Assembly (NCBI RefSeq): GCF_045037415.1
Contig: NZ_CP173438.1
Reading direction: 5' to 3' (one strand)
Source: Escherichia coli
GTDB taxonomy: Bacteria; Pseudomonadota; Gammaproteobacteria; Enterobacterales; Enterobacteriaceae
Length of the DNA: 64,000 bases
Position numbers: made by a program. Numbering within the stretch: the first letter of the stretch is position 1; the number at the start of each line of letters is the position of its first letter. This document shows positions 22,101 to 25,100 of this stretch, piece by piece.

Positions 22101-25100
22101 AAATACGGGTATTCGCGCCGATAACAACCTCACCGGCACTTTCATCAATAATCACCTGGTCTGCAATCTGAACATTTTTCTCTTTAGCATTAAGCTTCAG
22201 ATAGTTTTTCAGTTCCTGTGACAGAAGGTTGGGAATAAGCGGTTGACGCTTCCACCAGTGCGGAATAGCGGGTGGGTTTGTCGCGCTGAGGTTCGCGTCC
22301 AGTAAAAAAGGCAATAAGTCCATAAATAATCCAGATGGCATAAGCTAATAATACATACACAACGGAAAGCGGTGCTAAAGGCACCAACAACCAGCAACGA
22401 TGAAACCAGGCGCTAAATGCACCAATAACACAAACTACGCCGACCCAGATAAGCGGGAACATTGCCAACACCACACCATGTGGCCCGGTGGTGATGAATT
22501 CATTAAACCAGGTAGTGAGATAAATACCAACGCCATAAAGCACAACCAACAGCATAGGAAATATACTGAAGATACCGAAGCGGCTAAATAAAAGTCTTTT
22601 ATGCAGGCGCATACAGACCGCGTAGCCCACAATCCAACGCCGCCAGCGGCGCCACTCCTCACGCGGACTGTTACATTCCTGTGGGTATACGATGCAGCGA
22701 TTCGCCTGCCGAATACGGTAGCCGTTTGCCACCAACGTCCAGGTGAGATCAAGGTCTTCGACTTTAGTACGATCAGAGAAACCGAACTTACGCAATACAT
22801 CAGTACGGAACATCCCGCAGGCACCGCTGATAATAAACGGTGCACCGCCCAGAAACTGCTGTAGCGTGCGCTTCATAACAATCATCGGCAACTTTACGGT
22901 GGCGCGGATATGTGGCAGCAGACCTGCCCCTTTTAACGCGGTGGAGGGAATTCCGCCAACGGCATCAGCGCCGCGCTCAATTTCTGCCAGCATATAGCCC
23001 ATTCCATCATTATCAGGTGGAACGAAAGTATCTGCATCACTTAAAAATACTTGATCACACGTGGCGTATTTTAGTCCATGCATTAGTGCGCCACCTTTAC
23101 CGGTGTTTTTTTGCGTGACGGCAACAAAGCGGTCGCCCCATTTGCGTTTGACTTCCGCCATGACCGCTTCGGTATTGTCCGTGGATCCGTCGTTAACGCA
23201 AATTACCCGGCAAAAATAAGGGTTACGCAGCAGATTATCCAGTGACTGCGCCAGACACGGGCCTTCGTTATAAGCTGGTATAATGGCGTCAATACAGCCT
23301 TTCTTTTGACAGGGTTTACGTCTTAGCGTACTTAAAAACCATAGCAACATTGCTATGGTCATGAAGATAAATAACAAAGTTTTCATTTCTATTACTCCGT
23401 TACAACACCATCTTATGGACAACAAAACCTTCACACATAGAATGACTAACCTGTTGTCCTCGGAATTTGGCTTGAGCAATTATGTATTCTGGCTGTATGT
23501 ATCTTCGATGGATCTGGCTTTTATGCTTTTGTAATGCTAATATTTTTTTATTAAAATGGACCTCATCTACAGATTCAAAAACTTGAGGTAAAAATGACAG
23601 ACATGTACTTGGTGTTTCGTATCCTAGTATTTGAGGAATATAACGACAGGCAACCATTGATGCCTGATAAACAGCAATGTGATCCTGATGCCTGTCAGTA
23701 TTATTCATGGTGTAAACTCGAGTAATTTCCACATCCTGGGGCGTTTCATTCTCAATTATGTATTCCAGAGATGATATCATCTCTTTTATTTGCAAATATA
23801 ATCTGGTATCTTCAAAATTTAGAGGGATTAGTTTATTGCATCCTAACATATTTAATGCTTCTTGTGATTCCTTGTGACGATCAATATACTCTGCGCCACA
23901 GCAACCAGGTGTCATGACAACAGATATAATATATACTTTTTCATTAGAATAATATGAAAGAGATGCACCACATCCTAATTCTATATCATCAGGATGGGCA
24001 CCAATTGCTAAAATGCCGGTTCTTTTTCCCGAAGATGTTGTAGAATTCAACATGTAATCTATCCTTTTAGATATGCCATATGAATCCCCATCATAAATTA
24101 TCACTATCATAAAAATTAATCTTATTAAATATACTTTATATTTACTTTTTCAGAGGCAGAGAAGCATCATTTATGCAACAAGAAGATCTTCATTTCTGTT
24201 AAAAAAACAGAGTTTATATGCTATTACGGATTTCAGTCGTAGCAAGTTGAACTGTGATCGCATTAAGACTAATCTTCTGGCTTGTAAAGGCCTTAGTTCC
24301 GTCATGACTCTCCCATCAGGCCATAGTTGAGCAAAATCCTGAAAGAATTATCACCTATTGTATCTTCAGATACGGGAGTTTTTGTCCAGTATTGTTGGAA
24401 TAATCATGTGACTATATTGTTCTTGTAGTTGGAACGTCTTATAAATAAAACGAAAAGGCAGTAAGTTTGTTGTATTTATTGATATTTTTCATTCAGTTAG
24501 TTGGCAATAATCAGTTATGGTTGTATTCAAAAGTACAGCTAGAACGAAATTAAAATAACGGGAGCATCGTACATGACTTGATATTTCAGAGGGCTAAGTA
24601 TTAATATATTACTACGATCTGTCATCATTGACTATCAATATATTAGTTAGTTAAATATCTCTTTGTGTCATTCTGGCTAGTATATACTCATTATCATGAA
24701 TGCTGCCATGCATAGCTAGGTCATCACCAATTAATGATATTCTCTGGATAATGATTCAAGAGTTTAAGTTCATTGTATATATAAGTTTGTATTCAAAGGT
24801 AATAAATTCCTTGTTTATTATTTCTCATGAAAATAGTTAAGAAGGAGTGAAGAGTCTGTTTTTTTGGTAGGAGAGTCTTTATTTATGTGTTTGCTATTAA
24901 TGAATTTTTGTTAAGGTAGCCTCATTTGTCATAATTTTGCTAATATATGTATCGTCATATGTCGTGTTTTACTAAAAACTTAACTATCATGAACTCGTGA
25001 TAGTAACAATATACCCTTAAGGTAGAACTTTTTCTTGATGAGAAGGTTTAAGTTTGTAGTTCAGAATATTACTGCCAAGATAGTTTATACTAGGATATGT

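Follow-up and report, generated by a model that had tools for sequence, protein, structure and literature searches.

In the 64-kb stretch of Escherichia coli DNA analysed here (the window), two outward-facing genes, a yaiS-like deacetylase gene and ibrA, flank an AT-rich gap with no gene between them. Is this gap a control region built for its two neighbours, or does it have another origin? Taken together, the results indicate that it is probably a mosaic non-coding junction between a yaiOXPS-type operon and an ibrAB cassette, located in the cobU-side island of uropathogenic-type, phylogroup-B2-type E. coli.

The extent of the gap depends on where the flanking genes begin. The first-pass annotation had described an ORF-free, AT-rich gap between the divergent yaiS-like and ibrA genes at 24111-25037. 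The gap exists and the genes are divergent, but those limits are the longest-ORF starts of both genes, and between the credible start codons it covers 24054-25100 (1047 bp).

23400-24053, minus strand: yaiS-like PIG-L deacetylase gene (ORF list, PGAP, Shine-Dalgarno sequence, K-12 homology)
25101-26324, plus strand: ibrA, PAPS-reductase-like (PGAP, sequence, alignment of five variants)

The yaiS-like gene is the first of a leftward operon in the order yaiS-yaiP-acetyltransferase-yaiO. DNA identity to K-12 yaiP-yaiS is 85.8%, and the K-12 homology ends at 24035, within the first codons of the yaiS-like gene. The most credible start is the ATG at 24053, with a Shine-Dalgarno sequence AAAGGA (24067-24062 on the minus strand) 8 nt on its 5' side. 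Two other starts were rejected: the ATG at 24110 that gives the longest ORF is without a Shine-Dalgarno sequence, and at 24062, where PGAP starts the gene, the codon is ATA. For ibrA, the credible start is the ATG at 25101, preceded by AGGA at 25092-25095, identical to the PGAP start and consistent with other ibrA variants. In an alignment of five variants, homology begins at about 25104-25145, and the first ~1-15 codons of ibrA occur in this arrangement alone. In annotation, the starts of both flanking genes can thus be corrected.

The base composition sets this region apart from its surroundings. GC makes up 30.9% of 24111-25037 and 30.8% of 24063-25100, compared with 50.3% of the window. 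No other kilobase of the window is as AT-rich as the gap (about 31% GC), and among all its 927-bp stretches 24111-25037 has the lowest GC content (lowest 0.08% of positions). TpA steps make up 11.7% in the gap versus 5.0% in the window. The many A/T tracts mentioned earlier are present, but their number is an effect of composition only, with no excess over shuffled sequences: there are 35 A/T-only runs of at least 6 (34.9 ± 3.6 in mononucleotide shuffles) and 35 AnTm tracts of at least 4 (43 ± 4.7 in shuffles). Helical phasing of A-tracts at 10-11 bp is absent in the gap.

The composition is not uniform, and homology searches divide the region into three segments, the middle one with a recognizable ancestry.

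24036-24147, no strand assigned: left unique segment, from the end of K-12 homology (24035) to the start of IS630 homology (~24148)
24148-24672, plus strand: decayed ISEc40-like IS630-family insertion sequence (blastn, nhmmer, tblastn)
24202-24306, plus strand: remnant of the transposase N-terminal helix-turn-helix (HTH), residues ~9-47 (tblastn)
24510-24665, plus strand: remnant of the transposase DDE domain, residues ~178-232, 'ISYGWI.K...K.TG' (tblastn)
24673-25100, no strand assigned: right orphan AT-rich segment, 428 bp, with no relatives outside this locus

GC content is about 25% in the left segment, 34% in the IS remnant and about 29% in the right segment. As judged by homology, an eroded insertion sequence of the IS630 family, ISEc40-like, takes up about half of the gap, a point that the first-pass annotation missed. 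Its claim of no credible ORF is right in that no ORF exceeds 46 aa in the gap (ORF list), and PGAP places no feature there among the records listed of the 843 complete genomes with the locus; but coding ancestry is present, with about half of the gap consisting of a dead transposase gene.

The remnant comprises the 5' leader and some two-thirds of the transposase gene; it is broken by stops and frameshifts and has lost ~200 bp through internal deletions. Using blastn against 28 Gb of sequence, the gap matched annotated IS630 pseudogenes at 71.8% (E=7e-9). With the L002 reference pseudogene copy as nhmmer query, 24153-24334 (E=1e-17) and 24337-24672 (E=1.8e-6) were aligned, and with the intact L015 copy, 24148-24333 (E=2e-9). 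At the protein level, the HTH remnant was found by tblastn with 56% over 36 aa (E=3e-8), and the match was repeated with 12 family members. The DDE remnant scored up to 26.9 bits in tblastn, a level matched by none of 300 dinucleotide shuffles, with or without the requirement of colinearity; it is colinear with the HTH remnant, and no more than the first part of the domain is detectable. A broad profile of 41 IS630 sequences was no more sensitive than the close relatives. In the searches against plasmids and phages, the IS630 piece alone was matched in plasmids, and phages gave nothing.

An intact transposase ORF is absent from the remnant. Because it contains multiple stops, frameshifts and deletions, and Pfam gave no match on six-frame translations of the gap with stops masked, the element as read from its sequence is a fossil and not an active or mobile one. 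No matching terminal inverted repeats were found in the gap or around the intact plasmid copy, nor was a TA duplication identified. Three further plasmid copies are all one and the same insertion and so do not delimit the element. The C-terminal third of the transposase was not found in the gap.

On either side of the fossil the DNA has no known relatives. Within the left segment lie the first ~6 codons of the yaiS-like gene, its ribosome-binding site and its promoter-proximal DNA; searches gave no relatives of this segment, and nhmmer detected just the coding overlap. With 24673-25100 as query, distant blastn returned only the 843 genomes carrying this locus. No relatives of the right segment were found in plasmids, in phages, upstream of other ibrA variants, at the Citrobacter yaiS locus, or with IS630 profiles. 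A repeat search in the gap gave short two-copy families only, which were judged to be chance.

Alternatively, a single decayed IS630 element might span all of ~24148 to ~25050, with its right third eroded past recognition. The space would suffice: recognizable codons 1-232 occupy 495 nt, the missing 109 codons and 3' end would take ~380 nt of the 428 nt available, and everything detected is colinear on the same strand. However, 24673-25100 stayed silent with the intact protein, the 13-member query set, the 41-sequence profile and nhmmer; the L002 copy runs ~180 nt past the last aligned position without a match; and the right inverted repeat was not found. We regard this reading as unlikely and keep the three-part mosaic.

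The distribution of the gap among genomes is in keeping with a mosaic junction. Of 5426 complete genomes, 843 carry it (840 at ≥99% identity), including ST131, UTI89 and CFT073, and it occurs in one arrangement only. CFT073 has the same locus, with the gap at 2326695-2327732 of its genome and 2 differences in 1038 bp (99.8% identical). The setting is an island full of IS debris, adjoining cobU and asn tRNA genes. Upstream of five other ibrA/ybdN loci (L26, GPEC874, O157, W170 and K-12 ybdN) the DNA is unrelated to the gap. For example, GPEC874 has the same island backbone, with clbP/clbQ debris replacing yaiO-yaiS and the gap. A scan of the genome collection for empty sites with the yaiS-like protein was swamped by the generic GAHPDDIE PIG-L motif; it gave one close relative, from Citrobacter, with unrelated upstream DNA. 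The two modules flanking the gap, the yaiOXPS-type operon and the ibrAB cassette, probably move independently. The gap is ~1 kb and not a few hundred bp because the IS630 remnant fills its left-central half.

Mobile elements have continued to enter this region in other strains, as indicated by the following sites.

24199-24979, no strand assigned: span of IS insertion sites in other strains (target-site duplications, megablast of loci L003-L007)
24199-24202: IS5 insertion site (target-site duplication)
24238-24242: IS3-family insertion site (target-site duplication)
24346-24353, 24757-24765 and 24932-24939: IS1 insertion sites (target-site duplications)
Ending at 24979: IS5-linked deletion

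There are at least six independent IS events in the gap, as a raw count; IS-bearing alleles occur in TUM13881, NR2550, E41-1, MS20673 and SCU-313. The low GC content and high TpA frequency may explain why IS1, IS5 and IS3-family elements have landed here repeatedly.

Promoters for both modules had also been suggested for the gap. This part is required by geometry: because the flanking genes start inside the gap and point away from each other, the promoters of both must lie in it, and the gap is for the same reason a de facto divergent promoter region. The right segment 24673-25100, again by geometry, holds the ibrAB promoter and leader. Expression of c2484, the ibrB homolog, agrees with this, but a conserved control region was not found. 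In a consensus scan, the gap contains 8 promoter-like sites compared with 7.6 ± 2.9 in shuffles, which is chance level, and no strong minus-strand promoter-like site lies within 500 bp of the yaiS-like start.

24908-24955, plus strand: two overlapping sigma-70-like candidate sites (consensus scan, frequency at chance)

These candidates, TTGTTA-16-CATAAT with an extended -10 TG and TTGTCA-18-TATCGT, are located 146-193 bp upstream of the ibrA ATG. In the literature we found no functional work on the ibrAB promoter and no transcription start site map for the locus.

Past the gap, the first codons of ibrA are predicted to form a stable structure.

25113-25208, plus strand: long imperfect hairpin in the ibrA mRNA, codons ~5-36 (folding z-scores)

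This hairpin pairs variable N-terminal codons of ibrA with the conserved PP-loop-coding stretch. The folding z-score is -4.81 for 25101-25220 and -5.74 for 24940-25250, with no shuffle equally stable. Together with the AT-rich leader, the hairpin might provide cis-acting control of translation or stability in this ibrAB variant. It begins 12 nt past the AUG, four other ibrA variants have the same topology, and several pairs change on both sides (3 by RNAalifold; 7 in a count on the named structure). However, z-scores are weak in the other variants (-0.4 to -2.8), K-12 ybdN has no such structure (+0.6), and the covariation score of 0.207 is barely above slid controls (up to 0.177). Moreover, the structure came from a sequence that is itself part of the alignment, and conservation of a protein motif limits change in the 3' arm. 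Control by the hairpin is hence distinctly improbable, and a conserved RNA element was rejected as a firm claim by the slid-partner control and the ybdN outgroup.

A dedicated regulatory region, in which both modules would have conserved promoters or operators and a small RNA gene might also lie, is a still weaker candidate, and we consider it very unlikely. The divergent geometry, the long AT-rich spacer, a neighbour strongly bound by H-NS in the CFT073 data set (PMC9765446) and the in vivo expression of the ibrB homolog (PMC2978726) would fit it. On the other hand, half of the gap is a dead transposase gene, and there is no conservation, with unrelated DNA upstream of the five ibrA/ybdN loci and of K-12 and Citrobacter yaiS. 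The small RNA suggested earlier finds no footing: Rfam over 23000-26000 with E up to 10 gave no match inside the gap (two chance-level eukaryotic snoRNA matches lie outside), the scan detected 0 terminator-like sites, promoter-like sites are at chance, and folding z-scores stay ordinary throughout the gap proper, with no unusually stable fold within 24054-24950. The gap is ordinary non-coding junction DNA, and nothing suggests a small RNA. In the mosaic reading, its role as a divergent promoter region would be an accident of assembly and not a conserved regulatory module. Least probable of all is a small protein gene hidden in the gap, such as the 44-aa ORF at 24171-24305 on the minus strand, which has an ATG and an SD-like GGAG motif 4 nt upstream but is antisense to the IS630 HTH remnant and hence probably fortuitous, shows no Pfam signal in any frame and no PGAP call among the records listed, and exists in gap copies that are nearly identical.

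The gap had also been proposed as a target of H-NS. It is AT-rich, horizontally acquired and patchily distributed, and published data give indirect support, as the yaiS-like gene that abuts it is bound in CFT073 (occupancy 0.65; PMC9765446), but the high-affinity H-NS motif is not enriched in the gap. In the ChIP-seq data of CFT073 (Hustmyer et al. 2022; PMC9765446, Data set S1E), this gene, c2486, has an occupancy of 0.654 for H-NS and 0.649 for StpA, on a scale that sets the average of the 20 most strongly bound genes to 1, with values tabulated gene by gene. The double mutant in hns and stpA retains an occupancy of 0.089 at c2486 (PMC9765446). Other values in the CFT073 list of bound genes are 0.110 for yaiP, 0.379 for c2489, 0.207 for yaiO and 0.137 for hma, and ibrA and ibrB do not appear in this list (PMC9765446). 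Among isolates from UTI patients, 6 of 8 expressed the ibrB homolog c2484 (PMC2978726, Table 4). As extrapolated from the adjacent genes, the edge of the measured H-NS/StpA-bound patch falls at the gap.

Low GC content and high TpA frequency may make the gap a substrate of H-NS and StpA. A filament would cover the yaiS-like side and stop before or at ibrAB, which follows the occupancy of the adjacent genes and is extended by inference to the gap. With such a filament, the yaiS-like operon would probably be silenced, and ibrAB would be transcribed, in line with the in vivo expression of the ibrB homolog. One could go further and suppose that ibrAB has its own front end, in which the orphan leader and hairpin control ibrA translation or mRNA stability, and the IS fossil, as a boundary or nucleation site, keeps the H-NS/StpA filament on the yaiS-like operon. 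This is a speculation that we rate slightly below even the dedicated regulatory region; if true, it would explain expression in human infection beside a silenced neighbour.

For annotation, an IS630-family remnant can now be marked over about half of the gap in 843 complete genomes; beyond this the importance is small. The locus is an example of island 'control regions' built from mobile-element debris and later brought under H-NS, and a caution that a long AT-rich spacer need not have been built for regulation or hold an sRNA gene. What ibrAB does is poorly understood, and a promoter region that differs with genomic context may help studies of its regulation.

Compared with known systems, the remnant belongs to the ISEc40-like subgroup of the IS630 family, represented by the IS630 pseudogene adjoining yafV in many E. 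coli and by the intact 341-aa transposase of S. Infantis pESI-type plasmids. The leader, the N-terminal HTH and the early DDE domain are colinear with it in DNA and protein on one strand, whereas the GC content is 34% versus ~42% in the L002 reference pseudogene. At bgl and flhDC, for instance, where promoter regions are silenced, insertions of IS1 and IS5 relieve repression by H-NS. The gap is likewise an AT-rich regulatory spacer repeatedly hit by IS1 and IS5 in natural isolates, although its insertions, unlike those, may be neutral. The K-12 yaiS-tauA and Citrobacter yaiS upstream regions are also AT-rich (30-31% GC) and non-coding, and precede a yaiS-type operon, but they are shorter (615 bp and ~400 bp) and not alignable with the gap. 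Finally, the gap resembles the H-NS/StpA-bound acquired DNA of CFT073 (PMC9765446) in being island-located, 31% GC and TpA-rich, with the abutting operon on the list of bound genes, and differs from it in that the ibrAB side is off that list, with in vivo expression of the ibrB homolog.

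The window comes from the chromosome of a phylogroup-B2-type E. coli. In the stretch tested, identity is 100% to ST131-type strains, 81009 among them, and 99.8% to both UTI89 and CFT073. The gap lies in a genomic island that adjoins cobUST and includes c2482/hma, a haem receptor gene; beyond this island are asn tRNA genes and then the yersiniabactin island. An AT-rich gap between divergent yaiS-like and ibrA genes was confirmed, with the lowest GC in the window and a longest ORF of at most 46 aa. However, its limits in the first-pass annotation (24111-25037) derive from the longest ORFs and differ from the start codons that have ribosome-binding sites. 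In the yaiS-like gene, ATG 24053 (minus strand) has AAAGGA upstream at proper spacing, while ATG 24110 has no ribosome-binding site. The PGAP start of the PIG-L/yaiS-like protein WP_024174324.1 (220 aa) at 24062 is an ATA codon (24060-24062) overlapping the Shine-Dalgarno, and from the sequence the true start looks like ATG 24053 (24051-24053, minus strand; 217 aa). ibrA starts at ATG 25101, with AGGA at 25092-25095, in agreement with PGAP and with where other ibrA variants begin. Because of these two starts, the gap is set at 24054-25100 (1047 bp).

Features of the gap and its flanks (window coordinates)
Left flank, minus strand: leftward operon of yaiS-like PIG-L deacetylase, yaiP, acetyltransferase and yaiO genes, diverging from ibrAB
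Right flank, plus strand: rightward ibrAB pair, diverging from the yaiS-like operon
24148-24672, plus strand, oriented towards ibrA: IS630-family remnant (nhmmer and translated matches)
24202-24306, plus strand: transposase N-terminal helix-turn-helix (translated comparison, 56% over 36 aa, E=3e-8)
24510-24665, plus strand: part of the DDE domain, ISYGWI.K…K.TG, residues ~178-232 (hit with longer relatives and with an intact copy of 341 aa)
24171-24305: 44-aa ORF antisense to the IS fossil, with an SD-like motif
24908-24955: best ibrA promoter candidates (consensus-like sites, count at chance level)

The simplest fact about this spacer, overlooked in the first-pass annotation, is that a dead IS630 element makes up half of it. 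A distant blastn search of 5,426 complete E. coli genomes, with the gap as query, returned the gap's own locus and 106 further records, in which annotated IS630-family transposase pseudogenes match window ~24163-24307 (72% identity, E=7e-9). The helix-turn-helix remnant is broken by a frameshift and stops, and a protein search places it in an ISEc40-like subfamily. The DDE match, for which the intact 341-aa query was a copy from a Salmonella plasmid, is colinear with it on the same strand, and 300 dinucleotide shuffles of the gap gave no score as high. Using nhmmer with a closer E. coli pseudogene copy, 24153-24334 (E=1e-17) and 24337-24672 (E=1.8e-6) were matched, with deletions of about 200 bp in total. 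On these colinear helix-turn-helix, DDE and DNA matches, 24148-24672, about half of the gap, is read as a fossil IS630-family element. Its C-terminal third, inverted repeats and TA duplication were not found in searches of the gap, and the intact plasmid copies gathered to delimit the element all represent one same insertion. The 44-aa ORF overlies this fossil and is probably fortuitous.

Independent insertions occur in the gap of other strains, and it is interrupted or truncated in about 16 of 843 genomes. IS1, IS5 and IS3-family elements prefer AT-rich DNA, and the insertions fit this preference. An IS1 copy also lies within ibrAB in strain 23556 (H66), splitting ibrB into two annotated pieces.

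Insertions in the gap of other strains (window coordinates)
24199-24202: IS5, E41-1
24238-24242: IS3-family, MS20673
24346-24353: IS1, NR2550 and 21220 (position mapped in NR2550 only)
24757-24765: IS1, MS20673
24932-24939: IS1, TUM13881
Ending at 24979: IS5-linked deletion, SCU-313

The gap has a GC content of 30.8-30.9%, versus 50.3% in the window, and is the most AT-rich 927-bp stretch across all 64 kb. The sole other stretch below 33.5% GC is ~47204-48313, intergenic DNA that separates fyuA from an inverse-autotransporter beta-domain gene fragment at the yersiniabactin island edge. TpA steps are twice as frequent in the gap as in the window. The "many A/T tracts" of the first-pass annotation follow from composition: A/T-only runs of at least 6 number 35, where shuffles give 34.9 +/- 3.6. 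The count of A-tracts lies a little below expectation, and helical phasing of A-tracts was not seen in the gap.

The locus is also present in CFT073, where 1038 bp contain 2 differences, and ChIP-seq of that strain (Hustmyer et al. 2022, PMC9765446) gives wild-type H-NS occupancy per gene. In Data set S1E, a value of 1 is the average over the 20 genes with the strongest binding, and the cut-off for listing is 0.07 of the maximum.

Wild-type H-NS occupancy in CFT073 (PMC9765446, Data set S1E)
c2486 (yaiS-like, abuts the gap): 0.654
c2489 (acetyltransferase): 0.379
c2490 (yaiO): 0.207
c2482 (hma): 0.137
C_RS11785 (yaiP): 0.110
clbA (for scale): 0.60
ibrA, ibrB: absent from this bound-gene list

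For c2486, the same source gives a wild-type StpA occupancy of 0.649, and the hns stpA double mutant retains an H-NS signal of 0.089. As the AT content of the gap exceeds even that of c2486, the gap is very probably covered by the filament over c2486, with the filament edge near ibrA, an inference from a table of per-gene values. The proposed H-NS target has indirect backing in these values: the spacer is AT-rich and divergent and abuts strongly occupied c2486. The high-affinity H-NS motif shows no enrichment in it. In 6 of 8 women with UTI, the urine isolates expressed the ibrB homolog c2484, one of a set of pathogen-specific genes (PMC2978726), which accords with ibrAB not being silenced. 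On the left side of the window, which is rich in IS elements, a truncated gene of the Hha/YmoA family (H-NS co-regulator paralog) lies at 8640-8783 (from L100), next to inovirus Gp2-family and zinc-ribbon genes.

From geometry, both promoters must lie inside the gap, as had been suggested, but predicted sigma-70-like sites are at chance level (8, versus 7.6 +/- 2.9 in shuffles), and the scan placed none near the yaiS-like start. A suggested small RNA found no support: the gap proper has no Rfam match, no terminator-like site and no fold of unusual stability. Inside ibrA (25113-25208, plus strand, codons ~5-36), the mRNA can form a long imperfect hairpin, with a stability well beyond that of shuffles (z = -4.8 to -5.7), which pairs variable N-terminal codons with a conserved PP-loop-coding stretch. 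Four other ibrA variants share its topology with some two-sided changes and weak z-scores; it is absent from K-12 ybdN, and its covariation score is barely above slid-partner controls.

The first-pass annotation was partly right, on an H-NS-type AT-rich divergent spacer that must hold the promoters, and wrong or unsupported on conservation and a small RNA. Homology to K-12 yaiOXPS (85.8% over yaiP-yaiS) stops six codons inside the yaiS-like gene, at 24035, and other E. coli ibrAB copies (avian strains 97-99%; O157, O103 and others 88-90%; K-12 ybdNM 62%) align only from ~25104-25145, inside ibrA. DNA upstream of those copies is unrelated to the gap and among themselves. The right 428 bp (24673-25100) match solely in 843 genomes with this exact arrangement, and comparison with plasmids, phages, the remaining window and the yaiS loci of Citrobacter and K-12 gave no relatives. 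These edges and the orphan right part identify the gap as a lineage-specific junction that happens to provide both operons with their start codons and upstream DNA, and not as a conserved control module.

Compared with K-12 (20858-24035 in the window), island yaiO-yaiX is 96% identical and yaiP-yaiS only 86%; the acetyltransferase gene (yaiX) is intact here and split by IS2 in K-12, and an IS2 fragment lies just past yaiO (20420-20632). In strain 81009 one place only matched a yaiS-yaiP query, so the island copy may be its sole yaiOXPS copy. In other lineages (O157:H7, W170 and EC15), a PerC-family regulator gene and a conserved hypothetical gene of 214 aa come after ibrAB, and the genes before it differ (AAA-domain protein, or VasL/hypothetical); the B2 island cassette is ibrAB alone. 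Strain GPEC874 shares this island backbone (L009, its locus, 3800-4950; compare window 20800-25100), with clbP and thioesterase fragments of the colibactin island directly upstream of ibrA, replacing the yaiO-yaiS operon and the gap. Because colibactin debris occupies the same place, this part of the island was rebuilt at least twice. The gap is ordinary island architecture.
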